DNA from: Escherichia coli
Lineage (GTDB): Bacteria; Pseudomonadota; Gammaproteobacteria; Enterobacterales; Enterobacteriaceae
DNA: 64,000 nucleotides
Direction: 5' to 3' (one strand)
Assembly (NCBI RefSeq): GCF_003991155.1
Contig: NZ_CP031293.1
The notes beneath the pieces were generated by a model, which was not told the DNA's origin, ran no database searches, and was given only the letters and a program-made list of their open reading frames with translations. Below, piece after piece: positions 6,243 through 47,388 of this stretch (position 1 is its first letter; each line of letters opens with the position of its first letter). Position numbers and translations under genes: made by a program.

Positions 6243-6474
6243 CCAGTCGGACCTTAATGGCCTCTTGTGGGTTGGCCAGTCGTTCCCTGACAGTGCGTAA
6301 CAAGGCTTCTTCACTATCACTGACAGTGAGCGTTTTTACCGGCATTCGTCCATTTTCCGCAACGTACTGAAACAGCAGCCGCACTGCTTCAGTAGGCGTA
6401 ATATTTAATTTTTCCAGCACCGCATAAGCCTCATTTTTCAGTTTGTCATCCAGGCGGACGTTAAGTGTGGCCAT
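6232..6474 (-). CDS. RelB/DinJ-family antitoxin (ribbon-helix-helix), 80 aa
   Basis: Translation MATLNVRLDDKLKNEAYAVLEKLNITPTEAVRLL...RLDEL parallels K-12 RelB; 3' end overlaps toxin start by 11 nt (typical coupling). Confidence 0.8.
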   Translation of the reverse strand: MATLNVRLDDKLKNEAYAVLEKLNITPTEAVRLLFQYVAENGRMPVKTLTVSDSEEALLRTVRERLANPQEAIKVRLDEL

Positions 6475-11734: not shown

Positions 11735-11766
11735 GCTCCTGCGCCTCTCCACACGGAGAGGCGTTT

Positions 11767-13774: not shown

Positions 13775-13784
13775 ACTGTTCTCC

Positions 13785-15287
13785 TTACGCCGCAATGGCG
13801 TTCATGATCGCCGGAACGGAAAGCTCTGCCAGCGGGATCTCCGCCACCTGTTTGCGATCGCGCATGATAATCACCCGATCGGCATAGCCCACCAGTTCTT
13901 CCAGTTCGGAGGAGATCACCAGCAGCGCCAGTCCATCGGCGCACAGCGTTTCAATCAGGCGGATGATCTCGGCGTGGGCACCAACATCAATGCCGCGGGT
14001 TGGCTCATCGAGGATCAGAAATTGCGGTCGGGTCAGTAGCCAACGTGAAAGCAACACTTTTTGCTGATTGCCGCCGGAGAGAAATTCAATCGGTTGTTCA
14101 GTTGAAGGTGTGCGAATGCCAAGCTGGCGGATAAAGCGTTCGGCAATTTCTTGCTGTTCTTTGCGGGAAATCGGTCGTAGCCAGCCGCGCTGGGCCTGGA
14201 GAGCGAGGATGATATTTTCCCGCACCGAGGCGGCAGCGATGATGCCATCGGTTTTCCTGTCTTCCGGGCAGAAGCCGATACCCAGTACCGAAGCCTGATG
14301 TGGCGATCGCAGGGTTTGCGGTTTGCCTTTGATCAGCGCCGTGCCGCTGTCAGCAGGTTTGATACCGAAGATCACTTCGGCGGTTTCGGTACGTCCTGAT
14401 CCCAGCAACCCTGCCAGGCCGACGATCTCGCCGGGGCGCACTTCGAGATCAAACGGTGCGATCGTTCCTTTTTTGCCGTAATTTTTGAACGCTGCAACGG
14501 GTTTGTCGCTCAACAATGTTCGCCCGGCACGCTGTAGCGCGTGAGTGTCCAGCTCGCGCCCCAGCATCATTTTTACTAGTTCGATCTGCGGTAGCTCGCG
14601 GGTTTCCCGACAGCCTACGAAACTGCCGTTGCGTAAGACGGTGATCCGATCGCTGACCTGATAGACCTGATCGAGAAAGTGAGTAACGAAGATCAGGCTG
14701 ACGCCGCGATCGCGCAACTGCCGCATCAGGCCAAACAGTAACTCTACTTCCTGAGTGTCGAGACTGGCAGTGGGTTCATCGAGGATCAGCACTTTGGCAG
14801 AGAGATCGATAGCCCGGCAAATGGCGACGATTTGCTGCATCGCCACTGAAAAGCGGTTGAGCGGTTCGCGCACGTCGAGGGAGAAACCGTAAGATGCCAT
14901 CAGTTCGGTGGCGCGCTTTTCCATCTCTTTACGGCGTAGAAGGCCGAAACGTTTGGGTTCGCGACCTATGAATAGATTATCAGCGACCGACATATTGGGT
15001 AGCAGGTTGACTTCCTGATAGACGGTGCCGATGCCGAGTTGTTGTGCGTGGGCGGTATTTTTCGGTGAGATTGCCTGGCCTTCCAGCCAGATGGTGCCGC
15101 GATCGGCGTGGTATACACCGGTTAAGGCTTTGATTAGCGTTGATTTTCCCGCCCCGTTTTCACCGAGCAGCGCCATAATTTCGCCGCGGCGCAGGCTGAA
15201 ATCAACGTTGTCTAACGCTTTGACGCCGGGGAAAAATTTACTTAATCCTTCGGTGCGGAGGATTTCCTGGTGTTGGTTAGTATTCAT
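13785..15287 (-). CDS. ytfR: Galactofuranose ABC transporter ATP-binding protein, duplicated ABC domains (500 aa)
   Basis: Translation from MNTNQHQEILRTEGLSKFF with two Walker A/LSGG motifs; RBS GGGGGAA upstream of ATG at 15287. Confidence 0.92.
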   Translation of the reverse strand: MNTNQHQEILRTEGLSKFFPGVKALDNVDFSLRRGEIMALLGENGAGKSTLIKALTGVYHADRGTIWLEGQAISPKNTAHAQQLGIGTVYQEVNLLPNMSVADNLFIGREPKRFGLLRRKEMEKRATELMASYGFSLDVREPLNRFSVAMQQIVAICRAIDLSAKVLILDEPTASLDTQEVELLFGLMRQLRDRGVSLIFVTHFLDQVYQVSDRITVLRNGSFVGCRETRELPQIELVKMMLGRELDTHALQRAGRTLLSDKPVAAFKNYGKKGTIAPFDLEVRPGEIVGLAGLLGSGRTETAEVIFGIKPADSGTALIKGKPQTLRSPHQASVLGIGFCPEDRKTDGIIAAASVRENIILALQAQRGWLRPISRKEQQEIAERFIRQLGIRTPSTEQPIEFLSGGNQQKVLLSRWLLTRPQFLILDEPTRGIDVGAHAEIIRLIETLCADGLALLVISSELEELVGYADRVIIMRDRKQVAEIPLAELSVPAIMNAIAA

Positions 15288-15329
15288 AGTTTCCCCCGGT
15301 GTAAAGCGTGCGTCAGATAAGACACAACT

Positions 15330-15419
15330 GCGTCGCATCAGGCATCTCGCACAACCGCCGGATGCGGCGTGAATGCCTTATCCGGCGGCCCACAAGTCGG
15401 CATCAGGCATTGATGCCCC
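15330..15419. repeat. REP/BIME-type extragenic palindromes (includes GCCGGATGCGGCGTGAATGCCTTATCCGGC)
   Basis: REP consensus visible between ytfR and ytfQ. Confidence 0.8.
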
Positions 15420-16376
15420 TCAATACCCCATATTTTTCTTCTTCTCTAACTCTTCTTTTGCGGTATCAGGCAGATAAAGGGTGGATTTGGTCAGGGTCAG
15501 CTTTTCAGGCATGGTGCCGTCTTTTTTGTATTTCTCCAGCGCATCAAAAGCGGGGCCTGCCATGTTCGGCGTCAGTTCAACGCTGGCGTTCGCTTCGCCA
15601 TCAATCATCGCTTTGTAGATGTCCGGCACGCCGTCGATAGAGCCTGTCAGGATATCTTTGCCCGGTTTCAGGCCCGCTTCTTTAATTGCCTGAATTGCAC
15701 CAATCACCATGTCATCGTTATGGGCGTAAACCATGCAGATGTTTTTGCCGTTGTTTTCCGCTTTGATAAAGCTCTCCATCACTTCTTTGCCTTTGCTGCG
15801 GGTGAAGTCACCTGACTGCGAGCGGATAATTTTGATATTTGGCGCATTCTTAATGGCTTCGGCAAAGCCTTTCTTACGGTCAATGGCGACGCTGGCCCCA
15901 ACGGTGCCCTGCAGCTCCACCACGTTGCATGGTTTGCCATTCACTTCTTTTACCAGCCAGTCACCAATCAACTTGCCTTCGAGGATGTTGTCGGCGGTGA
16001 CAGTGGTCATATAGAGAGATTTGTCTTTCACATCGATGGAACGATCGAGCAAGAAGACCGGGATTTCGGCATCTTTCGCCTCTTTTAATACCGGCTCCCA
16101 ACCGGTCGCTACCACTGGAGCGATAAAGATCGCATCCACCCCTTGCGCGACGAAGGAACGTACCGCTTTAATCTGGTTTTCCTGCTTTTGCTGACCATCG
16201 GCAATTTTCAACGTAATTCCGCGCTTTTCGGCTTCACTTTTCGCCACATTGGTTTCTGCGGCGCGCCAGCCGGATTCCGATCCGACCTGCGAAAATCCAA
16301 CGGTTAATGGAGCAGCCAACGCCATAGACGACATGGCTGCCGAGACTGCAGAGACTACAAGTAAGCGTTTCCACAT
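15420..16376 (-). CDS. ytfQ: Periplasmic galactofuranose-binding protein (318 aa)
   Basis: Translation MWKRLLVVSAVSAAMSSMALAAPLTVGFSQ... with signal peptide. Confidence 0.93.
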   Translation of the reverse strand: MWKRLLVVSAVSAAMSSMALAAPLTVGFSQVGSESGWRAAETNVAKSEAEKRGITLKIADGQQKQENQIKAVRSFVAQGVDAIFIAPVVATGWEPVLKEAKDAEIPVFLLDRSIDVKDKSLYMTTVTADNILEGKLIGDWLVKEVNGKPCNVVELQGTVGASVAIDRKKGFAEAIKNAPNIKIIRSQSGDFTRSKGKEVMESFIKAENNGKNICMVYAHNDDMVIGAIQAIKEAGLKPGKDILTGSIDGVPDIYKAMIDGEANASVELTPNMAGPAFDALEKYKKDGTMPEKLTLTKSTLYLPDTAKEELEKKKNMGY

Positions 16377-16685
16377 AGGGTTGTCCTCGTCGGGGTAATT
16401 ATTATTGGTGAAAAGATGTTCGCGAAAAAACTATAGACAATTCGTTATGTAACGGATTGCGTTACATCACACTTCAAAAAAGTAAATAAAACGTTAATCA
16501 CAAGTTTGTAATCGCTTTCATCTCACTATGAAAAATGCGGCTACGGTTATGGATTTTCCTGCTCTTTAAACCACCTTAAAACTGGCTAAAAAGGAAAATG
16601 AAGAAGAAAACAAGCGAAGACATTCGGCGCGAGTTGGCTATAATACTCGGCACTTGTTTGCCACATATTTTTAAAGGAAACAGAC

Positions 16686-17216
16686 ATGAGCTTACTCAAC
16701 GTCCCTGCGGGTAAAGATCTGCCGGAAGACATCTACGTTGTTATTGAGATCCCGGCTAACGCAGATCCGATCAAATACGAAATCGACAAAGAGAGCGGCG
16801 CACTGTTCGTTGACCGCTTCATGTCCACCGCGATGTTCTATCCGTGCAACTACGGTTACATCAACCACACCCTGTCTCTGGACGGCGACCCGGTTGACGT
16901 ACTGGTCCCGACTCCGTACCCGCTGCAGCCGGGTTCTGTGATCCGCTGCCGTCCGGTTGGCGTACTGAAAATGACCGACGAAGCCGGTGAAGATGCGAAA
17001 CTGATTGCTGTTCCGCACACCAAGCTGAGCAAAGAATACGATCACATTAAAGACGTTAACGATCTGCCAGAGCTGCTGAAAGCGCAAATCGCTCACTTCT
17101 TCGAGCACTACAAAGACCTCGAAAAAGGCAAGTGGGTGAAAGTTGAAGGCTGGGAAAACGCAGAAGCCGCTAAAGCTGAAATCGTTGCCTCCTTCGAGCG
17201 CGCAAAGAATAAATAA
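16686..17216 (+). CDS. ppa: Inorganic pyrophosphatase (176 aa)
   Basis: Translation [38 protein letters not shown]... matches Ppa. Confidence 0.97.
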
Positions 17217-17294
17217 GTTCTTCTAGCGTAATAACCCTGAACGCCGGGCTTCGGTTAGTAGGGGTTTTTTATGCCCGCGATAAATAAACACACC

Positions 17295-17645
17295 TTATTC
17301 CACCACCGCCTGCAAACGTAATAACGCCTCTTCCACCACCTCACCCGCAGCCAGACCAATACGCTTTGCCAGTCGGGCGCGTAAATCCATCATCCGCACC
17401 TGATTCACCAGCACCACGCCGTGCACATCGCCTTCTTCGCAATGTAAAGGAACGCTAAATCCGGCATAACGGGCAAAATTTCCGCCCTGCGTAATGGGGG
17501 CCACCAGCGTCATTCCCAGTTGATTAAAGGCTTGAACGGAGAGCACAAGCGCAGGTCGACCAGCACCTTGCTGTTCATGGCCGCTTGCTGGATCAAAGCC
17601 AACCAGCACAATGTCTCCCCGTTCAAATTCACTTTTCTTTACCAT
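17295..17645 (-). CDS. chpB: MazF-family toxin endoribonuclease ChpB (116 aa)
   Basis: Translation MVKKSEFERGDIVLVGFDPASGHEQQGAGRPALVLS... Confidence 0.93.
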   Translation of the reverse strand: MVKKSEFERGDIVLVGFDPASGHEQQGAGRPALVLSVQAFNQLGMTLVAPITQGGNFARYAGFSVPLHCEEGDVHGVVLVNQVRMMDLRARLAKRIGLAAGEVVEEALLRLQAVVE

Positions 17646-17890
17646 ATTTCGTCACCCGCAGGGGTGGATTTACCCCAGACATCCTGCTCGCTAAGTTCCG
17701 TGGCGTTCATGTCACACTGTGCCAGCAGTTCATCAAGCGAGTAGCGCCTGGAGATGGGTGTCAGAATCAGTTGATTGTTGCTCACTTGCGCCTCCACGCT
17801 CTGCCCCGGCCGTAAGTTAAGTTCTTTCATCACAACATTAGGAATGACCATACCTGAACTGTTCCCCCATCTTTTTATGGTAATACGCAT
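17639..17890 (-). CDS. chpS: Antitoxin ChpS (83 aa, AbrB/MazE fold)
   Basis: Translation MRITIKRWGNSSGMVIPNVVMKELNL...; overlaps chpB start. Confidence 0.9.
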   Translation of the reverse strand: MRITIKRWGNSSGMVIPNVVMKELNLRPGQSVEAQVSNNQLILTPISRRYSLDELLAQCDMNATELSEQDVWGKSTPAGDEIW

Positions 17891-18101
17891 CTGCACCTCC
17901 TTAAGTTATACAAAGTATAACTCACGGTGCTACAGGAAACGTTTTACCCCTGCGCATTTGTGAACGCCAGCAGAGTTTTTTATGCGTTAACAGATATGGA
18001 AAGCGGCTCGGAGAGAAAAGCAAAAGGTGAGGGAATTACAAAACAGAATGCGAGTCGTCTCGCAAAAAACAACGCCACCCGAAGGTGGCGTATGCGTATG
18101 G

Positions 18102-18443
18102 TTACTTATCCCTGTCTAACCAGTCGCCGCTTTCAATTAGCTTTAATCCATCGACGGGTCGTTGATAAACGTACATCCATGCACTCCCGTACGGCGTCTG
18201 AATCAACTGGCGCGCGTATTCACCGCCCCTGGTGCGCAAGGCATCAAGTTCGGCCAGCGTGGCGTTGTCAATACGATAAACTTCACCGTGTACTGTTCCG
18301 TTCCCCGGAACTGCGCCTGGATAGTGGCCCAGGCTATACAACTGGTAGTTATCGATACTGAAATCGCCCAGTAACTGGGCATTGGTCATCCAGTGACTGT
18401 TGCCTTGTTTGTGGCGTAAACTGCCGTAGACAAATATTCGCAT
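18102..18443 (-). CDS. ytfP: Gamma-glutamylcyclotransferase-family protein (113 aa)
   Basis: Translation MRIFVYGSLRHKQGNSHWM... (AIG2-like YGSL motif). Confidence 0.9.
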   Translation of the reverse strand: MRIFVYGSLRHKQGNSHWMTNAQLLGDFSIDNYQLYSLGHYPGAVPGNGTVHGEVYRIDNATLAELDALRTRGGEYARQLIQTPYGSAWMYVYQRPVDGLKLIESGDWLDRDK

Positions 18444-18445
18444 TG

Positions 18446-23997
<5,552 letters not shown>

Positions 23998-36380: not shown

Positions 36381-37019
36381 ATGCCCGGGCGCTTTGAACT
36401 AAAACCAACCCTGGAGAAAGTCTGGCACGCGCCGGACAATTTTCGCTTCATGGACCCGCTGCCGCCGATGCATCGTCGGGGGATCATTATTGCCGCCATT
36501 GTATTGGTAGTCGGATTTCTGCTTCCATCTGATGATACGCCCAACGCGCCAGTGGTGACGCGTGAAGCGCAGTTAGATATTCAGTCGCAATCACAACCAC
36601 CGACAGAAGAACAGCTGCGGGCGCAATTAGTCACGCCACAAAATGATCCTGATCAGGTGGCTCCGGTCGCTCCAGAACCAATACAGGAAGGCCAGCCAGA
36701 AGAGCAGCCGCAAACCACCCATACGCAACCATTCCAGCCAGATAGCGGAATTGATAATCAATGGCGCTCCTATCGTGTCGAACCCGGTAAAACGATGGCG
36801 CAGCTGTTCCGCGACCACGGACTGCCCGCTACCGATGTCTATGCCATGGCGCAGGTAGAAGGCGCGGGTAAGCCGCTGAGTAATTTGCAAAACGGGCAGA
36901 TGGTGAAAATCCGCCAGAACGCCAGCGGCGTGGTGACGGGCTTAACCATTGATACGGGGAATAATCAACAGGTCCTGTTTACCCGCCAGCCGGATGGCAG
37001 TTTTATTCGTGCGCGGTAG
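36381..37019 (+). CDS. ytfB: OapA/LysM-domain cell-division protein YtfB (212 aa)
   Basis: Translation from [29 protein letters not shown]...; GGAGG RBS before ATG at 36381. Confidence 0.9.
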
Positions 37020-37650
37020 ATGAAGGGTCAACCAAAAGCCAGCTAAGGATTGTCTCTTTGATGACCTTACGTCTGGCTTCCAGTGCCTGGGGTGAAACCA
37101 TACTGATGTGATAAACCAGGCCAAGCGTATGCTGGTTGATCAAATAATATCCCCCAAGCGCAGCAATATTAATATTCACCTGCAATGGGTCGATATCTGG
37201 CTTAAAAATATTGTGTTTCTTCCCTTCATCCAATAAGGATTCCATTAACTGCAAGTGCGCATGGTTAATTTCTAAAAGACGCTGTGACTTTGCATAATGC
37301 ACACCCTTACTTTGATTTTCACTATGCACAATTTTTAAAAACCAGGGATTAGAAATATAATAATCCCATGTAAAATCGATTATTTTCTCAATGGCTTTCT
37401 GTGGCGGAAGATCTGAGAAATCAAGGGCCTTTTCTTTTTGTCGAATATCGTTCCAGGTATATTCCAGTACTTCGATAAATAAATTTTCTTTATTACCAAA
37501 GTGGTGATAAACCGTCTGTTTACTGCACCCTGCTGCCTTGACAATATTATCGACTCTGGCCCCTTCGTAACCATATTCGGCAAATTCATTAACCGCGCAT
37601 AACAGCAGCTTTTCTTTCAGGCTCTGTACGTTGCTGGTATCAAGATACAT
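37003..37650 (-). CDS. TetR-family transcriptional regulator (215 aa), divergent from accessory operon
   Basis: N-terminal HTH signature ...[34 protein letters not shown]...; 3' end overlaps ytfB 3' end by 17 bp; AT-rich codon usage by eye. Confidence 0.85.
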
Positions 37651-37746: not shown

Positions 37747-37773
37747 CAAATGTCCTGTGATCGCCATCGCATA

Positions 37774-37793
37774 TCAACCAACTAGATGGTTGA
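37774..37793. promoter_or_regulatory. Perfect palindrome TCAACCA-ACTAGA-TGGTTGA; candidate TetR operator about 70 bp upstream of first operon gene
   Basis: Read directly; 7-bp arms, 6-bp spacer, located in promoter region. Confidence 0.5.
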
Positions 37794-37862
37794 TCTTTTT
37801 ATCATCCAGTCGCAAGCTAATCATCACCAAGGAAACAAAATTCAAAAAAAGAGAGCTATTGT

Positions 37863-38654
37863 ATGAAATCCACTCGTCCTGTTGCCGTGATTACCGGAGC
37901 CGCTCGTGGTATTGGAAAGGGCTGTGCGCTGGAGCTTGCGCGTGGCGGATTTAATCTGCTGATTAATGATCGTCCGGATGCGGATAGCGTAGAAAAATTA
38001 CATGCCACACAACAAGAATGTCTGGCGGAAGGCGTGGAAGTGATTTGCTTCCCTGCTGATGTGGGCGATCTCTCCCTTCATGAAGAGATGCTCGACGCGG
38101 CGCAAAACCAGTGGGGACGTCTGGACTGTCTACTCAACAACGCAGGCATTTCAGTGAAAAAACGCGGTGACCTCCTCGACCTCGAACCAGACAGCTTCGA
38201 TCAAAACATTGCCATTAACACCCGCGCGCCGTTCTTCCTTGCTCAGGCATTCAGTAAGCGCTTACTGGCACAGCCGAAACCGGAAGCAGAACTGCCGCAC
38301 CGCTCGATTATTTTTGTCAGTTCCATCAACGCCATCATGCTGGCGATGAATCGCGGCGAATATACCATTGCCAAAACTGCCGTCTCCGCCGCAGCTCGTC
38401 TGTTTGCCGCTCGCCTTTGCAATGAACAAATTGGCGTTTATGAAGTGCGCCCTGGTCTCATCAAAACTGATATGACTATTCCGGCAACGGCTTATTACGA
38501 CGAACTGATTGCCAAAGGTCTGGTGCCGTGGGGACGTTGGGGTTATCCGGCTGATATTGCTTCCACTGTCCGCGCGATGGCGGAAGGTAAACTGATTTAC
38601 ACCTGCGGTCAGGCGGTTGCCATCGACGGCGGCTTAAGTATGCCGCGCTTCTGA
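37863..38654 (+). CDS. Short-chain dehydrogenase/reductase (SDR), 263 aa
   Basis: TGAARGIG Rossmann motif, NNAG, catalytic YxxxK (YTIAK) in translation. Confidence 0.85.
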   Translation: MKSTRPVAVITGAARGIGKGCALELARGGFNLLINDRPDADSVEKLHATQQECLAEGVEVICFPADVGDLSLHEEMLDAAQNQWGRLDCLLNNAGISVKKRGDLLDLEPDSFDQNIAINTRAPFFLAQAFSKRLLAQPKPEAELPHRSIIFVSSINAIMLAMNRGEYTIAKTAVSAAARLFAARLCNEQIGVYEVRPGLIKTDMTIPATAYYDELIAKGLVPWGRWGYPADIASTVRAMAEGKLIYTCGQAVAIDGGLSMPRF

Positions 38655-38663
38655 GGCTGAATC

Positions 38664-39506
38664 ATGAGAGATCTGTTACAACGCCCGGATTTATTCAGTA
38701 TCAATACCGCAACACTGGGCTATAAAACGCCGCTACCCGCCATTATTGATGCCTGCGCCGCACGCGGTATTGGCGCAATTGCCCCCTGGCGCAGGGAGTT
38801 GCAGGGTGAAGATCTCCAGCAAATCGCCCGCCAGCTTGCTGCCAGTAACATAAACGTTTCCGGTTTGTGCCGTAGCACCTACTACACCGCACCGACGCTG
38901 GCGGAGCGCAAACTGGCGATTGACGATAACCGCCGGGCGCTGGACGACGCCGCTGTACTGAACGCTGCCTGTTATATGCAGGTGGTTGGCGGTCTGCCAA
39001 TGGGAACAAAAGATCTGTACGAAGCGCGGGAACAGGTGAAACAAGGGATTCGCCAGTTGCTGCCACATTCGAAAGATGTCGGTGTGCCAATTGCACTGGA
39101 GCCACTGCACCCGATGACTGCTGCCGATCGTTCTTGTCTGTGCACGTTACGTCAGGCGCTGGACTGGTGTGATGAACTCGATCCCGATGGCGAATTTGGC
39201 CTCGGCGTGGCGGTAGATGTCTACCATGTCTGGTGGGATCCGGATCTCGCCAGTCAGATCCTGCGTGCCGGAAAACGCATCCTCGCGTTTCATGTTTCCG
39301 ACTGGTTAGTGCCGACCACCGATCTGGTCAATGACCGTGGAATGCCGGGAGATGGTGTCATCAATATTCCGTCAATTCGTCGGCTGGTTGAAAACGCCGG
39401 ATTTAATGGCGCTATTGAACTGGAAATATTCTCACCGTATTGGTGGCAGCAAGATATTGACAGCACACTGGATATTAGCGTCGATCGCATCGCGCATTAT
39501 TGCTAA
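38664..39506 (+). CDS. Xylose-isomerase-like TIM-barrel protein (sugar-phosphate isomerase/epimerase or dehydratase family), 280 aa
   Basis: Family-level resemblance of the translation to IolE/hydroxypyruvate-isomerase-type TIM barrels; 10-nt gap from SDR with GAGG RBS. Confidence 0.65.
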   Translation: MRDLLQRPDLFSINTATLGYKTPLPAIIDACAARGIGAIAPWRRELQGEDLQQIARQLAASNINVSGLCRSTYYTAPTLAERKLAIDDNRRALDDAAVLNAACYMQVVGGLPMGTKDLYEAREQVKQGIRQLLPHSKDVGVPIALEPLHPMTAADRSCLCTLRQALDWCDELDPDGEFGLGVAVDVYHVWWDPDLASQILRAGKRILAFHVSDWLVPTTDLVNDRGMPGDGVINIPSIRRLVENAGFNGAIELEIFSPYWWQQDIDSTLDISVDRIAHYC

Positions 39507-39515
39507 GGAATAATC

Positions 39516-40292
39516 ATGAGTGACCAACCCGTTCTGTTCAGCAGAGCGGCGGCTTCTTGCCGCCTGACATTGAACCGTGAAGATAAATGTCATGCTATTA
39601 ATGAAGAAATGATCGAATCTCTCGACCATTATTTAAATGAAATTGAAAATGACACGGCATTACGCTTAGTCGAATTAACGGCAACCGGCGATAAATTCTT
39701 TTGTGCGGGCGGCGATATTAAATCGTGGTCGGCCTATTCGCCATTAGATATGGGCAGAAAATGGATTAAACGCGGTAACGAGGTTTTTAATCGCCTGCGC
39801 AATTTACCCCAATTAACGGTTGCAAATCTCAACGGTCATACCATTGGCGGTGGGATTGAACTCGCCTTGTGCTGCGATATTCGTATTGCCCGCCCCGGCG
39901 CGAAATTCTCTAACCCGGAAGTGATGCTCGGCATGGTGCCTGGCTGGATGGGCATTGAACGCGTGCTTAATCAGGTTGGCCCGGTGGTCGGTCGCCAGAT
40001 GCTGATGCTGGGTAAACGCCTGACGGCGCAGGAAGCTCAGGCGGCGAATTTAATTGATGAAGTGGTAGAAAAAGAACAGGTGGAAAGCTGGATGGCGAAT
40101 CAGTTAGCGCAGCTGGAAAAATGCGGTCCGGTGGCGCTCGCACATATCAAGCAACTGATTCTGGCACTGGAAAATAAACATGCTGATTACCCGCACCAGT
40201 TACTGGCTGGATTAATGTCCGCCACTCAGGATTGCCAGCAGGCGACGCGCGCCTTTGCCGAAAAAAGTAGCGTGAGCTTCCAAAATCAATAA
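39516..40292 (+). CDS. Crotonase-fold enzyme (enoyl-CoA hydratase/isomerase family), 258 aa
   Basis: FCAGGDIK and GHTIGGGIELALCCDIRIA oxyanion-hole motifs in translation. Confidence 0.85.
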   Translation: MSDQPVLFSRAAASCRLTLNREDKCHAINEEMIESLDHYLNEIENDTALRLVELTATGDKFFCAGGDIKSWSAYSPLDMGRKWIKRGNEVFNRLRNLPQLTVANLNGHTIGGGIELALCCDIRIARPGAKFSNPEVMLGMVPGWMGIERVLNQVGPVVGRQMLMLGKRLTAQEAQAANLIDEVVEKEQVESWMANQLAQLEKCGPVALAHIKQLILALENKHADYPHQLLAGLMSATQDCQQATRAFAEKSSVSFQNQ

Positions 40293-40301
40293 GGAAATTG
40301 T

Positions 40302-41843
40302 ATGCGTAAGATAACAACCACCGAGACACTGGCGGCGCAAATTCAGGACGGCGCAACCATTGCCATTAGCGGTAATGGCGGCGGAATGGTGGAAGCGGAC
40401 CATATTCTGGCTGCTATTGAAGCGCGTTTCCTGCAAACCGGACACCCGCGCGATCTGACATTAATCCACTCGCTGGGCATTGGCGATCGCGACTGCAAAG
40501 GCACTAACCGCTTCGCTCATGCAGATATGCTCAAACGCATCATTGCCGGGCACTTTACCTGGTCGCCCAAAATGCAGGCGCTGGTAAAAAATAACACGAT
40601 TGAAGCCTACTGCTTTCCTGGTGGCGTGATTCAGGCACTGCTACGGGAGATCGGCGCCGGACGTCCGGGGCTTTTTACCCACGTTGGGCTGGGATCGTTT
40701 GTTGATCCACGCAATGGCGGCGGTAAGTCGAATGAATGCACGACCGACGACCTGGTAGAACTGATTGAAATCGATGGTGAAACCAAACTTCGTTATCGCC
40801 CTTTCAAAGTGGATTACGCGATTTTGCGTGGCACTTATGCCGATCCACGAGGCAACGTCAGCCTCGAAGAAGAGGCGATTGATATGGATAGCTATTCGAT
40901 GGCGCTGGCAGCACACAACAGCGGCGGCAAAGTGTTCGTACAGGTACGCGATGTGCTGGAAGCTGGCGCGATTGAACCACGCCGGGTCAAATTACCGGGC
41001 ATTCTGGTTGATGGCATCGTTGAACACCGCGAACAACCGCAAACCTATCTTGGCGGTTACGACCTGACCATTAGCGGTCAACATCGCCGTCTGAGTTCTA
41101 ACGACGCTATTGAACTGGTTAGTCATCCAGTACGCCGCCTGATTGCCCGTCGGGCAGCACGCGAACTGGTGGCTGGCGCTTCAACCAACTTTGGCTTTGG
41201 TATTCCTGGCGGTATTCCAGGCGTAGCGCTGCGCGAAGGCGTTCCTTACCAAAGTTTATGGCTGAGCGTCGAGCAAGGTGTACATAACGGCATGATGCTG
41301 GATGATGCGTTCTTCGGCTGCGCCCGCAACGCCGACGCCATTATTCCATCACTCGATCAATTTGAGTTCTACAGTGGCGGAGGGATCGATATCACCTTCC
41401 TCGGCATGGGAGAGATGGATCAGTACGGTAACGTCAACGTCTCCCATCTCAATGGCAATCTGATTGGCCCCGGCGGATTTCTCGAAATTGCGCAAAACGC
41501 CCGTAAAGTGGTGTTCTGCGGCACGTTCGACGCCAAAGGTAGCAAGATCGATGTAACGCCAGATGGCTTGCATATCGCCCAGTCAGGTCAAATCCCTAAA
41601 CTGGTTACCCAGGTGGAAAAAATCACTTTTAGCGCCGCCTACGCACAGCAAAGCGGTCAGGAAGTGTTGTATATCACTGAACGTGCAGTATTCCAGTTAA
41701 CGGCAGAAGGCGTTGAATTAATTGAAATCGCACCGGGTGTGGAGATTGAGCGCGACATTCTGCCGTATATGGCTTTCCGTCCAATTATCAAGCACCCACG
41801 CCTGATGGAAAGTAGCCTGTTTACGCCGATGGAGGATGCATGA
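40302..41843 (+). CDS. Fused alpha/beta family I CoA-transferase (acyl-CoA:acetate/3-ketoacid CoA-transferase, YdiF-like), 513 aa
   Basis: Translation parallels remembered E. coli YdiF along its length (e.g. ITERAVF.L...G..LIEIAPGV..E.DIL near C-terminus). Confidence 0.8.
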   Translation: MRKITTTETLAAQIQDGATIAISGNGGGMVEADHILAAIEARFLQTGHPRDLTLIHSLGIGDRDCKGTNRFAHADMLKRIIAGHFTWSPKMQALVKNNTIEAYCFPGGVIQALLREIGAGRPGLFTHVGLGSFVDPRNGGGKSNECTTDDLVELIEIDGETKLRYRPFKVDYAILRGTYADPRGNVSLEEEAIDMDSYSMALAAHNSGGKVFVQVRDVLEAGAIEPRRVKLPGILVDGIVEHREQPQTYLGGYDLTISGQHRRLSSNDAIELVSHPVRRLIARRAARELVAGASTNFGFGIPGGIPGVALREGVPYQSLWLSVEQGVHNGMMLDDAFFGCARNADAIIPSLDQFEFYSGGGIDITFLGMGEMDQYGNVNVSHLNGNLIGPGGFLEIAQNARKVVFCGTFDAKGSKIDVTPDGLHIAQSGQIPKLVTQVEKITFSAAYAQQSGQEVLYITERAVFQLTAEGVELIEIAPGVEIERDILPYMAFRPIIKHPRLMESSLFTPMEDA

Positions 41844-43921
41844 GCCAGCTTGATGACACCCTCCTTGATGCGCTGACACACGTCACTTTCCCAAAGGGTT
41901 TTGTGTCAGCAGAGCCAGCGTCAATTGTCACGGTTGAAGATGTCGATTACCCGATCTGGCAAGTTGATGCGCTAGTCGTTGGTAGCGGCGCAGCAGGATT
42001 ACGTGCGGCAGTTGAACTTAAACGCCGCCAGCAAAATGTGCTGATCGCCACCGCCGGGTTATATATGGGGACATCGGCATGTTCTGGCTCTGATAAACAG
42101 ACGCTGTTTACCGCCGCTACCGCGGGCAACGGCGATAACTTCGCCAAACTGGCGGAAGCACTGGCGAGCGGTGGGGCGATGGATCATGACACCGCTTATG
42201 TCGAAGCGGTAGGTTCTCTGCACACTCTTGGCGGGTTGCAATATCTTGGTCTGGAATTACCGGAAGATCGCTATGGCGCGATTCTTCGTTATCAAACCGA
42301 CCATGACGAAGCCGGGCGTGCAACCTCGTGTGGGCCGCGTACCTCAAGGTTAATGGTGAAAGTGCTGTTGGAAGAAGTACAGCGCCTCGCCATTCCAGTG
42401 TTGACCAGTGCAACAGTGATTAAACTGCTGCATCAGCGTGACGAAAACGGCGAAGACCGTGTGGCGGGGGCAATCCTCGCGACCGGTCATCGCGCCCTTA
42501 ACCCATGGGGGCTGGCAATTGTGACTGCGCCCAATGTGGTACTGGCAACAGGAGGGCCTGGCGAGCTTTATCGCGACAGTGTGTACCCACACAAATGTTT
42601 TGGCTCGCTGGGGCTGGCGCTGGAGGAAGGCCTGACACTAACTAATCTGACCGAAAGCCAGTTTGGTATAGGCACGCCGCGCAGCACGTTTCCGTGGAAT
42701 TTGTCCGGCACCTATGTGCAGGTGATCCCATATATCTATTCCGTGGATGCTGAGGGTAACGAGTATAACTTCCTCGCGGATTACTATCGCACCACCCAGG
42801 AGCTGGCTTCAAACATCTTCCGTAAAGGCTATCAGTGGCCGTTCCACGCCACGCGGGTAATGGATTTTGGCTCCAGCTTGTTAGATATGGCGGTGGCGCA
42901 AGAGCAGCAATCAGGGCGTCAGGTATTTATGGATTTCAATCGTAATCCTGTAGCGGTGCCTGGTGATTTGCCCTTCTCATTAGATCGACTGGACGACGAC
43001 GTTCGCGCGTATCTGGAAAATAACGACGCTCTGGCACCATCGCCCATCGAACGACTGCAACGAATGAATCCGCTGTCTATCTCGCTGTATAAGATGCACG
43101 GTTACGATCTCACCACGCAGCCATTGCAGTTTGCCATGAATAATCAGCACATGAATGGCGGCATTGAAGTCGATATCTGGGGACAAACATCTCTGCCCGG
43201 TTGTTTTGCAGTGGGGGAAGTTGCTGGCACACACGGCGTCACCCGACCTGGCGGCGCGGCGTTGAATGCCGGGCAGGTTTTTGCTGTTCGTCTGGCGCGC
43301 TTTATTGGTTGCACGCAAAAGCGGAATATTGATGGAGATATTGCACAGCTGGCAGCTCCGGCACTGGCTTCTATAAGAGAGATCATTACTCAGGCGCACG
43401 ATAACGGGACCGGGATGCCGTTGTCGATTGTGAGAGAAAAAATTCAGGCACGAATGTCTGACTATGCGGGATTTATTTGCCATGCCGATAAAGTTCGACG
43501 TGCCACTCGTGATGCCCTGCTATTGAGTGAATTTGTCCAACAGCATGGATTGGCAATCAAACATGTGGGCGAAGTTGCCGAGCTGTTTATGTGGCGGCAT
43601 ATGGCACTGACTTCTGCCGCCGTATTAACGCAATTGACGCATTATATTGACGCAGGTGGTGGTAGCCGGGGAGCACGTATTATTCTCGACAGTGATGGAA
43701 ATTCTATTCCGCAAACACGAAATGGTTTTTGTGATGCCTGGCGCTTTCGTTCAGAGCGTACTGAGGATAAAAAAGATAAACTACTTATTCATTATTGCAA
43801 CGGTATCTTTCACGTCAGAGAAACACCTGTTCGTGAGTTTCCTATTATCCGAGGTATTTGGTTTGAAAAAAACTGGCCTGGTTTTCTTAATGGGACAATT
43901 TACCAGCCACAGGATGAATGA
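41840..43921 (+). CDS. FAD-dependent oxidoreductase of the fumarate reductase/succinate dehydrogenase/L-aspartate oxidase flavoprotein family with long C-terminal extension, 693 aa
   Basis: N-terminal DALVVGSGAAGLRAAVE dinucleotide fold, TGGPGELY, and C-terminal GGIEVD...GCFAVGEVAGT-HG..R.GG.AL motif; ATGA overlap with upstream gene and GGAGG RBS. Confidence 0.75.
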   Translation: MSQLDDTLLDALTHVTFPKGFVSAEPASIVTVEDVDYPIWQVDALVVGSGAAGLRAAVELKRRQQNVLIATAGLYMGTSACSGSDKQTLFTAATAGNGDNFAKLAEALASGGAMDHDTAYVEAVGSLHTLGGLQYLGLELPEDRYGAILRYQTDHDEAGRATSCGPRTSRLMVKVLLEEVQRLAIPVLTSATVIKLLHQRDENGEDRVAGAILATGHRALNPWGLAIVTAPNVVLATGGPGELYRDSVYPHKCFGSLGLALEEGLTLTNLTESQFGIGTPRSTFPWNLSGTYVQVIPYIYSVDAEGNEYNFLADYYRTTQELASNIFRKGYQWPFHATRVMDFGSSLLDMAVAQEQQSGRQVFMDFNRNPVAVPGDLPFSLDRLDDDVRAYLENNDALAPSPIERLQRMNPLSISLYKMHGYDLTTQPLQFAMNNQHMNGGIEVDIWGQTSLPGCFAVGEVAGTHGVTRPGGAALNAGQVFAVRLARFIGCTQKRNIDGDIAQLAAPALASIREIITQAHDNGTGMPLSIVREKIQARMSDYAGFICHADKVRRATRDALLLSEFVQQHGLAIKHVGEVAELFMWRHMALTSAAVLTQLTHYIDAGGGSRGARIILDSDGNSIPQTRNGFCDAWRFRSERTEDKKDKLLIHYCNGIFHVRETPVREFPIIRGIWFEKNWPGFLNGTIYQPQDE

Positions 43922-43941
43922 TATTGCAAAGGTTAATCACT

Positions 43942-44418
43942 ATGCGAAATATAATTAGATCTATTAATGCTCTACTTGCAGCATTGAACATTACCATTTT
44001 GGCGATCATCGTGGCATGTGTGACGTGGCAGGTGGCTGCACGATTTATATTTACTAGTCCCAGTATTTTTACAGATGAACTCAGCCGTTTGCTCTTTATT
44101 TGTCTTGGACTTTTTGGTGGGGCATACACCGCAGGGCAAAACCGGCATCTGGCGATTGACCTGATACCTATGATGCTGAAAGGAAAAGCCCGACGTCATT
44201 TATTTTTGTGTATTCAGATTATCGTTATTATCTTCGCTACCATCATTATGGTATATGGTGGTGGGCTATTAACGATGGATACATTCGATTCAGGTCAGAC
44301 CTCGCCCGCTTTAGGCTGGCAAATGGGATATATCTATATGAGCATCCCGATGAGTGGTGTACTTATTATTATATACACCATAGATATGGTTTTAACCGAA
44401 CTTAAACAACCACTCTAA
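43942..44418 (+). CDS. TRAP transporter small permease (DctQ family); alternative start 43918 overlapping upstream stop
   Basis: Short hydrophobic 4-TM-type translation MRNIIRSINALLAALNITILAIIVACVTWQ...; gene order Q-M-P. Confidence 0.8.
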   Translation: MRNIIRSINALLAALNITILAIIVACVTWQVAARFIFTSPSIFTDELSRLLFICLGLFGGAYTAGQNRHLAIDLIPMMLKGKARRHLFLCIQIIVIIFATIIMVYGGGLLTMDTFDSGQTSPALGWQMGYIYMSIPMSGVLIIIYTIDMVLTELKQPL

Positions 44419-44460
44419 AGATAACAAACAACAACCAACCATAGTAGGAATGGAGAAATT

Positions 44461-45762
44461 ATGGATTACTGGTTACCGATTATTGTGTTATTTGGTGCCT
44501 TCTTTTTTATGTTGGCATTAGGTGTACCTATTGTTTATGCCATTGGTTTATCGACACTGGCATCAATTTCCACACAACTCGATTTCAACTCAGCATTGAG
44601 TGTGGTTTCCCAAAAGTTAGCCTCCGGGTTAGATAGTTTTACGTTGTTGGCAATCCCATTTTTTATCTTGTCTGGCAACATTATGAATCATGGAGGAATA
44701 GCGCGACGATTAATCAACTTTGCCCGTATTCTCGGCGGTCGTCTGCCAGGCTCACTTGCCCACTGTAATATTCTCGCCAATATGCTGTTCGGGGCAATTT
44801 CTGGTTCAGCCGTGGCTTCGGCGGCTGCGATGGGCGGCGTCATGCATCCGCAACAGGTTAAAGAGGGCTACGACCCGGCATTCAGTACTGCGGTTAACGT
44901 TGCCTCTGCCCCGACGGGTTTGCTTATTCCACCAAGTAATACGTTAATCGTCTATTCACTGGTCAGTGGTGGTACTTCTATTGCCGCACTGTTTCTGGCG
45001 GGTTATGTTCCGGGAATTTTGCTGGGTCTGGCACTGATGGTAATAGCCGGTATTATCGCGGTACGTCGCGGTTATCCAAAGCCAGAACGCCCGACTTTAC
45101 GCCAGGCTGGCGTTGCGATATGGATGGCTATCCCCAGTATTTTCCTGATTATTTTAATTATGGGGGGTGTATTAAGTGGTATTTTTACCCCGACAGAGGC
45201 CTCCGCAATTGCAGTAATTTATACCCTTTTCCTTGCACTGGTTCTTTATCGTGAAATCTCAGTTAAAGATTTACCTAAAATATTTCTGGAATCCGTTATT
45301 ACCACTGCAATTGTCTTGTTATTAATTGGTTCTTCGATGGGAATGTCATGGGCGATGTCAAACGCTGACGTTCCCTTCCTGATTCTCGATTTGCTTAACA
45401 CTATTTCTGACAACCCAATAATAATCCTGCTTATTATCAATATTATCCTGTTGATTATCGGCACTTTTATGGATATGACACCGGCGGTACTGATTTTTAC
45501 GCCGATATTTTTACCGGTTGTCACCGAACTGGGCATGGACCCGATTCACTTTGGTATTGTCATGGTACTGAACATGTGTATCGGTATTTGTACTCCGCCT
45601 GTAGGCAGTGTGTTATTTGTCGGTTGTAGTGTATCTAAATTACCGATTAATAAAATTATCAAACCTATGCTGCCATTTTATGCCGTGATGGTATTGGTGC
45701 TGGCAATGGTGACCTATATTCCGCAAATCAGTATGGCATTGCCAAGAGCACTGGGTTACTGA
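44461..45762 (+). CDS. TRAP transporter large permease (DctM family), 433 aa
   Basis: Polytopic translation MDYWLPIIVLFGAFFFMLALGVPIVYAIGL... typical of DctM. Confidence 0.85.
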   Translation: MDYWLPIIVLFGAFFFMLALGVPIVYAIGLSTLASISTQLDFNSALSVVSQKLASGLDSFTLLAIPFFILSGNIMNHGGIARRLINFARILGGRLPGSLAHCNILANMLFGAISGSAVASAAAMGGVMHPQQVKEGYDPAFSTAVNVASAPTGLLIPPSNTLIVYSLVSGGTSIAALFLAGYVPGILLGLALMVIAGIIAVRRGYPKPERPTLRQAGVAIWMAIPSIFLIILIMGGVLSGIFTPTEASAIAVIYTLFLALVLYREISVKDLPKIFLESVITTAIVLLLIGSSMGMSWAMSNADVPFLILDLLNTISDNPIIILLIINIILLIIGTFMDMTPAVLIFTPIFLPVVTELGMDPIHFGIVMVLNMCIGICTPPVGSVLFVGCSVSKLPINKIIKPMLPFYAVMVLVLAMVTYIPQISMALPRALGY

Positions 45763-45814
45763 TGCGCATTCACTGGCGGCACCTGCCGCCATATTTATTA
45801 GAAAAGGAACATCT

Positions 45815-46786
45815 ATGAAAATAAAAGTATCCGCTGGCATTATCGGTGCTGTTCTTATGTTATCCGCAAGCCAGTCCTGGGCAGTGACATTAAAACTGAG
45901 TCATAATCAGGATAAGTCTCATCCTGTTCATAAAGCGATGGAGTTCTTTGCGAAAAAGAGCAAAGAGTACTCTAACGGTGATATTACTATTCGTATTTAT
46001 CCAAATGGAACATTGGGTACTCAACGAGAAACAATGGAGCTGATTCGTTCTGGCGCTATTCCACTGGTAAAAACCAACGCGGCAGAAATGGAAGCATTTG
46101 AAAATTCCTATAAATTATTTAGCCTGCCTTATTTGTTCCGCGATCGTGATCATTATTATCAGGTCATGCAGGGCGATATCGGGAGAAAAATCCTCGACTC
46201 AACGAAAAGCAAAGGTTATTTCGGGCTGACTTTTTATGATGGAGGCGCCCGCAGTTTCTACGGCAATAAACCAGTACTGAAACCAGACGATCTCAAAGGC
46301 ATGAAAGTCCGTGTCCAGCCAAGTCCTGGCGCAGTTGAAATGATCAAAGTCATGGGCGGTAACCCGACGCCACTGGATTACGGCGAGTTGTATACAGCCT
46401 TACAGCAGGGTGTGGTCGATATGGCAGAAAACAGCGTGATGGCGCTGACCACCATGCGTCACGGTGAAGTGGCAAAATCCTTCAGCCTTGACGAACACAC
46501 TATGGTTCCCGATGTGGTTCTGATGAGCAATGCTGCGTTTGATAAACTTAGCCCGGAAAATCAGGCAGTTATATTAAAAGCAGCTAAAGAATCAATGAGC
46601 TACATGAAAGACTTGTGGAGCGAGGAAGAGAAACAAGAATTTGCAAAACTGGATAAAATGGGCGTGAAAGTCTACCAGGTAGATAAAGCTCCGTTTATCG
46701 AGAAAGTACAGCCAATGTACGCAAACTTCGCTAAGGACAACCCAGCCCTTGCCCCAATGCTGGCTGATATTCAGGCAGCTAAGTAA
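45815..46786 (+). CDS. TRAP transporter periplasmic substrate-binding protein (DctP family), 323 aa
   Basis: Signal peptide MKIKVSAGIIGAVLMLSASQSWA then DctP-like SBP translation; AAAGGA RBS. Confidence 0.85.
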   Translation: MKIKVSAGIIGAVLMLSASQSWAVTLKLSHNQDKSHPVHKAMEFFAKKSKEYSNGDITIRIYPNGTLGTQRETMELIRSGAIPLVKTNAAEMEAFENSYKLFSLPYLFRDRDHYYQVMQGDIGRKILDSTKSKGYFGLTFYDGGARSFYGNKPVLKPDDLKGMKVRVQPSPGAVEMIKVMGGNPTPLDYGELYTALQQGVVDMAENSVMALTTMRHGEVAKSFSLDEHTMVPDVVLMSNAAFDKLSPENQAVILKAAKESMSYMKDLWSEEEKQEFAKLDKMGVKVYQVDKAPFIEKVQPMYANFAKDNPALAPMLADIQAAK

Positions 46787-46849
46787 TTATCTTCGTAGGG
46801 CTGCTTATTGTGGCCCTTATCGATATCTGCAAGTGCTCGCTACAAAAGC

Positions 46850-46877
46850 AAAACGCCGACCAATGGTCGGCGTTTTT
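46850..46877. terminator. Bidirectional rho-independent terminator (ACGCCGACC-AATG-GTCGGCGT flanked by A-run and T-run) between dctP-like gene and rplI
   Basis: Perfect 9-bp stem with flanking A/T tracts on both sides. Confidence 0.8.
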
Positions 46878-46897
46878 ACGTCTCGTTGAATAACGAA

Positions 46898-47359
<462 letters not shown>

Positions 47360-47388
47360 TCAAAGTCGTATTAATGGACCGTGACCGA

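Follow-up and report, generated by a model that had tools for sequence, protein, structure and literature searches.

A xylose-isomerase-like TIM barrel and a crotonase in an accessory Escherichia coli operon predicted to degrade a hydroxylated carboxylic acid

Why does a xylose-isomerase-like triosephosphate-isomerase (TIM) barrel stand next to a crotonase-fold enzyme in an operon of coenzyme A (CoA) enzymes? The question is raised by positions 38,664 to 40,292 of the stretch of Escherichia coli DNA analysed here (64,000 nucleotides of contig NZ_CP031293.1, assembly GCF_003991155.1; the window hereafter). An earlier note on this DNA had called the pairing unusual and had read it as a hint of a cyclic or polyhydroxylated acid substrate. 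Both open reading frames (ORFs) are present as described and are followed by a CoA-transferase gene, and RefSeq annotates the two in the chromosome of E. coli strain 2016C-3878, to which the window is 100% identical. They are the second and third genes of an operon of eight plus-strand genes with a divergent TetR gene (Table 1). The operon is probably catabolic and joins known superfamilies in an undescribed combination, and categorically new chemistry is not demonstrated by it. We favour, with a probability of roughly 0.4, a reading in which the operon is repressed by TetR and serves to break down a hydroxylated carboxylic acid taken up from outside, most plausibly a hexuronate-like sugar acid, and in which the TIM barrel acts on a free keto-acid.

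In such a pathway, the acid would be imported by the tripartite ATP-independent periplasmic (TRAP) system, or by an ACS-type major facilitator superfamily (MFS) transporter in other strains, and the short-chain dehydrogenase/reductase (SDR) would oxidise a secondary alcohol to a ketone. The free keto-acid may then be isomerised or epimerised via an enediolate at the metal site of the TIM barrel, and the SdhA/NadB-like flavoprotein would carry out a two-electron oxidation beside the carboxylate. The resulting short acid would be activated by the CoA-transferase and hydrated or dehydrated by the crotonase in an optional downstream module, the CoA-ester product being finished by a general thiolase or by central metabolism. 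The TIM barrel and the crotonase would act sequentially in one pathway on different kinds of molecule, the former on a free acid and the latter on a CoA ester. We infer all of these chemical steps; the gene anatomy, the conservation, and the residue patterns are observations.

The TIM barrel matches PF01261 over residues 28-266 (model positions 1-244 of 249). At E<=1e-10 its homologues exceed 7,700, and not one bears a functional name. Its closest solved relatives are PDB 3QC0 (SMc04130; also 3JU2; E 9e-86, 51% identity), annotated just as 'sugar isomerase', and 7VPF (41% identity); all of these are structural-genomics or 'putative sugar isomerase' entries. In Foldseek, the AlphaFold2 model of the protein (pLDDT 86) matches 3QC0/3JU2/7VPF with a TM-score of 0.88, and IolI and ketose 3-epimerases with 0.7-0.75. 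The next structural neighbours, at 21% identity or less, are IolI, ketose 3-epimerases, the dehydroshikimate-dehydratase domain of QuiC1, and YgbM, and a search of the model against AFDB50 returned uncharacterised proteins only. The earlier note had named orthology of the TIM barrel to a merely co-located housekeeping enzyme as something that would refute its reading; the TIM barrel is not such a gene.

Across 13 sequences, the most distant of them 55% identical, residues E146, D185, H210, E252, and E254 never vary, and they are placed where predicted strands 143-146, 180-185, 206-212, and 251-254 end. The Glu-Asp-His-Glu residues are predicted to be the usual metal site of the fold, and the signature of the family, DRGM(M/P)GDG, is found in a flexible loop. 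The conservation of catalytic residues that the earlier note wished to see checked is therefore found in the TIM barrel, and likewise in the crotonase, which keeps E115 and E135 (see below). For none of the named xylose-isomerase-like families is the NCBIfam equivalog cut-off reached. The nearest matches, at 11-28 bits against cut-offs of 300-465, are to the 5-keto-L-gluconate epimerase IolO (the best, 27.7 bits against 300), hydroxypyruvate isomerase, fructoselysine 3-epimerase, 2-oxo-tetronate isomerase, and psicose 3-epimerase. All five of these families do enediolate chemistry beside a carbonyl. Since three of the five (IolO, hydroxypyruvate isomerase, and 2-oxo-tetronate isomerase, all far below cut-off) act on keto-acids, barrels of this kind with keto-acid substrates are no rarity, and the chemistry of the TIM barrel is less exotic than the earlier note implied. 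The protein is predicted to be a metal-dependent keto-acid isomerase or epimerase of an orphan family.

Double-length relatives of the TIM barrel occur in the AlphaFold database (AFDB), namely A0A562MHD7 (541 aa), A0A1C4M673 (661 aa), A0A2N3VW29 (587 aa), and I5C696 (580 aa). One double-length relative is annotated 'electron transfer flavoprotein subunit beta'. This possible fusion to the beta subunit of electron-transfer flavoprotein (ETF) would tie the TIM family to ETF-dependent dehydrogenases.

To see which genes accompany the TIM family, one genome per species was scanned with an alignment of TIM. Of the loci found, at least 592 in number, the best 80 were typed, and a gene within 8 kb of TIM was counted as a neighbour. 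The neighbours are DUF993 (70/80), a Gfo/Idh/MocA dehydrogenase of 387 aa (60/80), TetR (41/80), SDR (18/80), CoA-transferase (16/80), acyl-CoA dehydrogenase (12/80), a crotonase (6/80), and the flavoprotein (3/80). The co-occurrence of TIM and crotonase across genomes, proposed in the earlier note as a check, thus does not mark the crotonase as the characteristic partner of TIM, with 6 loci for the crotonase against 70 for DUF993. In the commonest context, TetR-(TctC or sugar ATP-binding cassette (ABC) transporter)-Gfo-DUF993-TIM, there is no CoA enzyme, for example in Variovorax and Sinorhizobium; Variovorax has TetR-TctC-Gfo-DUF993-TIM alone. The Gfo, DUF993, and TIM proteins of this context all have orphan crystal structures (3OQB, 4DNH, and 3QC0). 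A second context, found in Burkholderiaceae, Pseudomonas, and others (about 14/80), combines CoA-transferase and acyl-CoA dehydrogenase with SDR-DUF993-TIM(-Gfo), and an aldehyde dehydrogenase and a GMC oxidoreductase are frequently nearby. The third context is the enteric form, SDR-TIM-crotonase-CoA-transferase-flavoprotein.

Two enteric clusters have neither crotonase nor CoA-transferase. A transposon-flanked Salmonella cluster (L088) reads TetR|SDR-TIM-flavoprotein-PcaK-like MFS, and Escherichia sp. ESNIH1 (L072) has TetR|SDR-Gfo-TIM-MFS-flavoprotein. Because crotonase and CoA-transferase genes are counted so rarely near TIM and both are absent from these two clusters, the TIM barrel is probably not acting on a CoA thioester; by the same evidence, its constant partner is a dehydrogenase, usually with a TetR_C_29 regulator. 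The crotonase and the CoA-transferase behave as an add-on module. The SDR lies immediately upstream of TIM in the TetR-divergent five-enzyme loci (Klebsiella, Salmonella, and Sodalis) and in the transposon-flanked Salmonella cluster. The earlier interpretation thus holds in part: a hydroxylated acid fits and the residues are kept, but the crotonase is not the characteristic partner of the TIM barrel.

The operon might instead run a modified beta-oxidation of a hydroxylated acid, with all five enzymes in one CoA-thioester pathway. The CoA-transferase would activate the acid, the flavoprotein desaturate it, the crotonase hydrate it, and the SDR form a 3-oxoacyl-CoA. TIM would isomerise an alpha-hydroxy-ketone CoA ester, for example 4-hydroxy-3-oxoacyl-CoA to 3-hydroxy-4-oxoacyl-CoA, in place of a thiolase; the acyl-CoA dehydrogenase would be the counterpart of the flavoprotein elsewhere. 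The position of TIM between SDR and crotonase, with coupled 9-bp junctions, agrees with this scheme, as do the second context, in which CoA-transferase or acyl-CoA dehydrogenase, SDR, DUF993, and TIM share one cluster, the nearby aldehyde dehydrogenase and GMC oxidoreductase, which could make the acid from an alcohol, the lack of a thiolase in every variant, and the relative annotated as an ETF-beta fusion. However, at least 50 loci, as well as the two enteric clusters just described, have TIM with dehydrogenases and, within about 8-10 kb of it, no enzyme that would activate an acid with CoA. Whether or not CoA enzymes are their neighbours, TIM proteins have 50-62% identity and all the invariant residues in common, which suggests that they catalyse the same reaction. 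Furthermore, free acids are the substrates of SdhA/NadB-type flavoproteins, and we know of no xylose-isomerase-like barrel that acts on a CoA ester. On balance, a pathway conducted wholly on CoA esters is doubtful, though it has to be taken seriously.

The TIM operon of Variovorax paradoxus (L086 5808-10879) adjoins a DeoR-DeoC-aldehyde dehydrogenase-RbsD-PfkB-ribose-type ABC cluster (10922-20879), which looks like one for deoxyribose or pentose use. This neighbourhood may be coincidental, as DeoC lies near TIM at 1 of the 80 loci.

The transporter genes give clues to the substrate. DctQ, DctM, and DctP are all present, as in a DctP-type TRAP transporter of organic acids. The best PDB matches of DctP are 4OVR, 4X8R, 4N8Y, and 4N15 (E 1e-72 to 1e-67), and matches to solute-binding proteins (SBPs) of TRAP systems from the Enzyme Function Initiative (EFI) extend to 1e-56. 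Of these structures, 4X8R is glucuronate-bound and 4N8Y is galacturonate-bound (PMC11668362), and 4N91 and 4MHF are binders of glucuronate or galacturonate (PMC7660916). DctP was compared with STM3169, a D-glucuronate binder (PMC7660916), by a numbering offset and by alignments to 4OVR, 4X8R, 4N8Y, and 4N15. R146, R166, and N206 are common to uronate SBPs, and R146 and R166 are carboxylate-binding; R166 (KVR166VQ) aligns with the conserved arginine of uronate SBPs, Arg170 in STM3169. At a constant offset of -4, N31, Q32, and D233 correspond to Asn35, Gln36, and Asp237, the residues that give STM3169 its specificity. All of these ligand residues except Q32 are invariant in relatives down to 53% identity, and in the copy of a Rhodocyclaceae metagenome-assembled genome (MAG) all are kept, Q32 included.

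Transporters at other TIM loci are ACS-family MFS, aromatic-acid-type MFS, TctC/Bug SBPs (24/80), and sugar ABC systems. Together, the transporters point to a hydroxylated carboxylic acid as the substrate, a hexuronate-like sugar acid being the foremost candidate. The cyclic or polyhydroxylated acid suggested in the earlier note sits well with the uronate-like SBP, the DgoT-like and PcaK-like MFS proteins, the TctC proteins, and the constant pairing of TIM with a dehydrogenase.

The crotonase keeps both catalytic glutamates, E115 (GGGIE) and E135 (NPEV), equivalent to Glu144 and Glu164 of rat enoyl-CoA hydratase; in 5ZAI, a 3-hydroxypropionyl-CoA dehydratase, their counterparts lie in the motifs GGGLE and LPE. 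This structure (1e-40) heads the PDB matches together with 5Z7R, a short-chain enoyl-CoA hydratase; clostridial crotonase is likewise among the closest relatives. All of the 25 best NCBIfam families, among them the named hydratases PRK05809, PaaF, DpgD, and EchA19, score below cut-off (best 152 bits against 394). Neither BadI nor MenB is among these 25 families or the 45 PDB matches, no direct alignment to BadI having been made. Given the two-Glu site and the best matches to 5ZAI and crotonase, a ring-cleaving hydrolase is unlikely, and the enzyme looks like an ordinary short-chain enoyl-CoA hydratase. Of the three activities allowed for it in the earlier note (hydratase, isomerase, or ring hydrolase), the hydratase-type site is borne out and the ring hydrolase becomes improbable; the idea of a ring-cleaving crotonase was dropped in view of the intact two-Glu site.

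The CoA-transferase aligns with YdiF (2AHU) over residues 11-508, its SVE324QG motif falling on TVE333TG. E324 is equivalent to Glu333 of YdiF, which we take to be the catalytic residue that forms the enzyme-CoA thioester. The similarity of the CoA-transferase to YdiF and of the crotonase to 5ZAI fits a module of YdiF-type CoA-transferase and crotonase hydratase that transfers CoA to a short acid and then hydrates or dehydrates it. The AcuN/AcuK module, which converts acrylate to 3-hydroxypropionate, may be an analogue of this pair. The SDR receives a predicted label of '3-ketoacyl-ACP reductase' from the PRK12745 equivalog.

The AlphaFold2 model of the flavoprotein (pLDDT 92.5) has its top Foldseek matches in SdhA, FrdA, AprA, and NadB (13-19% identity, E ~1e-30, TM-score 0.63-0.68), and its orthologues carry the FAD_binding_2 fold (PF00890). 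The protein stays below the SdhA, FrdA, and NadB cut-offs of NCBIfam (at most 124 bits against 450-1100). Its subfamily is a distinct one and numbers about 424 clusters at E<=1e-30; no iron-sulphur partner gene accompanies the flavoprotein gene. H437 and R469 align with NadB His351/Arg386-type positions; the dicarboxylate site of two histidines and two arginines is incomplete, and the capping-domain arginine is not alignable. A KstD-type ring desaturase was considered and dropped, with no such match in the Foldseek top 50. A 39%-identical homologue lies between a glycoside hydrolase family 4 (GH4) glycosidase and an Old-Yellow-Enzyme-type FMN oxidoreductase on a metagenome contig (L093 655-5485); these neighbours hint that the subfamily acts on sugar-derived carbonyls elsewhere. 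For a second distant homologue, likewise on a short contig, the neighbourhood was uninformative.

Two further pathways are to be weighed against these enzymes. In a reductive, carnitine-like (Cai-type) anaerobic pathway, the SDR and TIM would prepare a 3-hydroxy-acid, the CoA-transferase and crotonase would dehydrate it, and the flavoprotein would reduce the enoyl product as an electron sink. The logic of CoA-transferase, crotonase, and flavoprotein parallels that of CaiB, CaiD, and CaiA; the flavoprotein has the fumarate reductase/NadB fold, a flavodoxin gene directly follows the cluster in Sodalis, and the hosts are gut facultative anaerobes. But the flavoprotein also occurs in clusters that have no CoA-transferase or crotonase, the CoA-transferase is of family I and not of the CaiB-type family III, the E. 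coli operon has no electron-donor genes, and one FrdA-type catalytic histidine is missing. Such a pathway is therefore very unlikely.

The substrate could also be an alicyclic or hydroaromatic acid, similar to quinate/shikimate or cyclohexanecarboxylate, the ring being modified or aromatised by the SDR, the flavoprotein, and TIM (as a dehydratase, in the manner of 3-dehydroshikimate dehydratase or IolE), with the CoA-transferase and crotonase working as in the Ali/Bad pathways. The SBP clade binds six-membered pyranuronates, which are shaped like cyclitol carboxylates, and the Salmonella variant has a PcaK-like aromatic-acid:H+ symporter (371 bits). The set of CoA-transferase, dehydrogenase, crotonase, and SDR mirrors AliA/AliB/BadK/BadH. 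IolI and the QuiC1 dehydroshikimate-dehydratase domain are indeed among the distant Foldseek neighbours of TIM, but their matches, at 18-20% identity, are no better than those of ketose epimerases. There is no BadI-type ring hydrolase, the crotonase having a canonical two-Glu hydratase site; the ligand residues of the SBP fit glucuronate binders specifically; and the top 50 structural neighbours of the flavoprotein are SdhA/FrdA/AprA/NadB proteins, not KstD-like ring desaturases. An alicyclic substrate is thus decidedly unlikely.

Several points weigh against a hexuronate-like substrate handled by TIM as a free keto-acid. E. coli already has ExuT, UxaC, and UxuAB for hexuronates. The assignment itself is drawn from the similarity of DctP to SBP structures solved with ligand (about 40-45% identity) and from residues matched by an offset in numbering. 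The E. coli operon encodes no thiolase or lyase, which leaves the fate of the CoA ester unexplained, and in the flavoprotein Gly276 takes the place of the FrdA His232-type histidine ('Q(F/Y)HPT'). No characterised close homologue of TIM, SDR, or flavoprotein was found. Lastly, at the Burkholderiaceae and Pseudomonas loci of the second context TIM lies within a CoA-transferase/acyl-CoA-dehydrogenase/SDR/DUF993 operon, and these loci, with the ETF-beta-annotated relative, make a CoA-ester substrate for TIM possible. A fuller version of the pathway, in which a gut-available hexuronate-like sugar acid is converted to a short unsaturated or 3-hydroxy acid and then to CoA thioesters, by an undescribed route with a metal-dependent xylose-isomerase-like isomerase and a stand-alone SdhA/NadB-like flavoprotein and with the barrel possibly acting on a CoA ester, appears unlikely.

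Klebsiella oxytoca and Salmonella enterica likewise have all five enzymes between ytfB and rplI, in unchanged order, their transporter being a DgoT-like MFS protein of the ACS family. Sodalis ligni has the same five-enzyme order, and the Rhodocyclaceae MAG has the full TRAP version with the same enzyme order and, in addition, a MaoC hydratase. The pairing of TIM and crotonase is thus not a matter of chance. Between E. coli and Klebsiella or Salmonella, the ratio of nonsynonymous to synonymous substitution rates (dN/dS) is 0.03-0.07 for all five enzymes, with dS above 1 and saturated, and the value for TIM is 0.05-0.065; from genus to genus, all five genes thus evolve under strong purifying selection. 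Within E. coli, the TIM-crotonase pair (at least 80% coverage) is present in 3114 of 5426 complete genomes, and 1447 complete genomes have the complete TRAP version. In ATCC 25922, which has these five enzymes too, the TRAP genes are replaced by an MFS transporter and a HipA-like toxin module.

In K-12, the site is occupied by yjfZ (DUF2686) and the pseudogene ytfA. Of the 133 residues of ytfA (L087 3695-4096), 132 are identical to TetR residues 83-215 (window 37003-37401). ytfA is thus the C-terminal remnant of the operon's TetR, which means that K-12 has lost the operon; since K-12 lacks TIM, TIM is not a housekeeping gene. Decayed copies in some E. coli and Shigella lineages, where TIM measures 207 aa and the CoA-transferase is broken up into two ORFs, indicate ongoing loss in some lineages. 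One example is an E. coli read assembly (L096 10001-12960; proteins P0039-P0053).

This decay, together with the loss of the whole cluster in K-12, is what could be said for mere co-location, in which TIM would be an unrelated housekeeping or decaying gene. The conservation data effectively refute it: the junctions are translationally coupled, the gene order is kept in four enterobacterial genera and one betaproteobacterium, and TIM is under the constraint given above with its catalytic residues invariant.

The two transporter versions found in E. coli are 97-100% identical from SDR to CoA-transferase, the identity falling to 90.7% in the flavoprotein; this drop suggests a recombination breakpoint in the flavoprotein gene. 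In ATCC 25922, the region L092 13342-16525 (against window 43918-46786) holds an ACS-type MFS gene, a frameshifted HipA toxin gene, and a helix-turn-helix gene.

Comparison with known systems places the operon, at the equivalog level, in none of them, as judged from sequence. In the systems LtnD/DenD with OtnI, IolG/IolM with IolO, and Hyi, there is likewise a PF01261 fold with a Glu-Asp-His-Glu site, a dehydrogenase that makes a carbonyl as the operon partner, and a carboxylate substrate. OtnI, IolO, and Hyi are three of the five NCBIfam families nearest to TIM, yet at 21-28 bits against 300-350, and unlike the E. coli operon their pathways have no CoA-transferase, crotonase, or SdhA-like flavoprotein. 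The Gfo (3OQB)-DUF993 (4DNH)-TIM (3QC0/3JU2, SMc04130; 7VPF) module contains a true member of the TIM family and, like the E. coli operon, a TetR_C_29 regulator. The E. coli operon lacks DUF993 and Gfo and has SDR, crotonase, CoA-transferase, and flavoprotein instead; as the module is itself an orphan, it does not explain the operon.

An acyl-CoA route for deoxyribonate in Klebsiella michiganensis provides a case of a polyhydroxy acid degraded as a CoA thioester in an enterobacterium (PMC6365646). Its cluster likewise has a CoA-transferase, a 3-hydroxyacyl-CoA-type dehydrogenase, and acid MFS transporters; it also has a CoA-synthetase, a thiolase, a lactonase, and a glycerate kinase, and no xylose-isomerase-like barrel, crotonase, or SdhA-like flavoprotein (PMC6365646). 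The operon was therefore rejected as a deoxyribonate acyl-CoA pathway, the locus and genes being different and the TIM family being absent from the supplements of that paper (PMC6365646). The hexuronate TRAP systems (STM3169-3171; 4X8R, 4N8Y, 4N91, and 4MHF) supply the best PDB matches, and DctP keeps their arginine pair, asparagine, and Asn/Gln/Asp residues. Such transporters usually lie beside uxuAB/uxaC (PMC7660916), whereas the TRAP genes of the E. coli operon adjoin an entirely different enzyme set. The set for classical beta-oxidation is incomplete, the E. coli operon having no acyl-CoA dehydrogenase and no thiolase; no thiolase was present in the variants examined. No link of myo-inositol to the operon was found in the GapMind/fitness paper, and no link to the operon in the dicarboxylate paper based on random-barcode transposon sequencing (RB-TnSeq). 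A search of the literature on this cluster found no paper, the match to PMC9881135 being merely a product-name table.

Over half of the complete E. coli genomes have the cluster, ATCC 25922 and isolates of avian-pathogenic E. coli (APEC) among them; it was probably overlooked because K-12 keeps only the regulator fragment ytfA. If the substrate were identified, three orphan families with crystal structures (3QC0/3JU2/7VPF and the partners 3OQB and 4DNH) would gain a function, and so would the distinct SdhA-like flavoprotein subfamily. Should the undescribed route from a gut-available sugar acid to CoA thioesters be true, the SMc04130/3QC0 TIM family and the flavoprotein subfamily of about 690 aa would each have a function for the first time. 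The operon could also reveal a nutrient niche that separates gut from extra-intestinal E. coli lineages.

Table 1. Features of the operon and its borders in the window.
Feature	Position	Strand	Evidence
TetR/AcrR regulator (TetR_N + TetR_C_29)	37003..37650	-	RefSeq CDS; weak NCBIfam TetR matches; TetR_C_29 Pfam in orthologues
Palindrome of 22 bp, ATCAACCAACT/AGATGGTTGAT, TetR/SDR intergenic region	37773..37794	.	inverted repeat; candidate operator
Classical SDR	37863..38654	+	NCBIfam NF009386 (PRK12745), 420.6 bits against cut-off 250
Xylose-isomerase-like TIM barrel, 280 aa	38664..39506	+	Pfam PF01261, E 7.5e-38
Crotonase-fold enoyl-CoA hydratase (ECH), 258 aa	39516..40292	+	ECH_1, E 8.7e-45
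Fused family-I CoA-transferase, YdiF-like	40302..41843	+	PDB 2AHU, E 5e-114; PF01144 in orthologues
SdhA/FrdA/NadB-superfamily soluble flavoprotein, 693 aa	41840..43921	+	partial NCBIfam matches to TfrA/NadB/SdhA
TRAP small permease DctQ	43942..44418	+	RefSeq CDS; NCBIfam YiaM-like
TRAP large permease DctM	44461..45762	+	TIGR00786, 458 bits
TRAP solute-binding protein DctP, hexuronate-binding clade	45815..46786	+	best PDB 4OVR, 4X8R, 4N8Y, 4N15
GC-rich hairpin, 12-bp stem, dctP/rplI convergent region	46850..46876	.	terminator consensus match only

The operon is an accessory insert in the gap between ytfB and rplI, and its enzyme genes are tightly packed. The spacers SDR|TIM, TIM|crotonase, and crotonase|CoA-transferase are all exactly 9 bp, and at these junctions the stop codon runs into the Shine-Dalgarno sequence of the following gene (TGAGG / TAAGGA). 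Between the CoA-transferase and flavoprotein genes there is a 4-bp overlap (ATGA). In some assemblies, these two are called as one fused protein (P0123, 1078 aa; P0155; P0200), which arose either by a natural frameshift or through an error of assembly. The palindrome is likely the TetR operator, a prediction from sequence. Its core, AACCAAC..GTTGGTT upstream of SDR, has 0-1 mismatches in Klebsiella and Salmonella and 4 in Sodalis; it is weaker, with 6-7 mismatches in 22 positions, in the Salmonella mobile variant, ESNIH1, and the Rhodocyclaceae MAG. At the other end, the hairpin is likely a bidirectional terminator that closes the operon. A TTG-start ORF of 188 aa at 46808-47374 (+) runs antisense to rplI (46898-47347, -), is of low complexity, and is almost certainly not a gene. 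Elsewhere in the window, a RelB/DinJ-RelE toxin-antitoxin pair at about 5951-6473 (-), between cybC and nrdG (RefSeq, identical genome), forms an unrelated small accessory insert.

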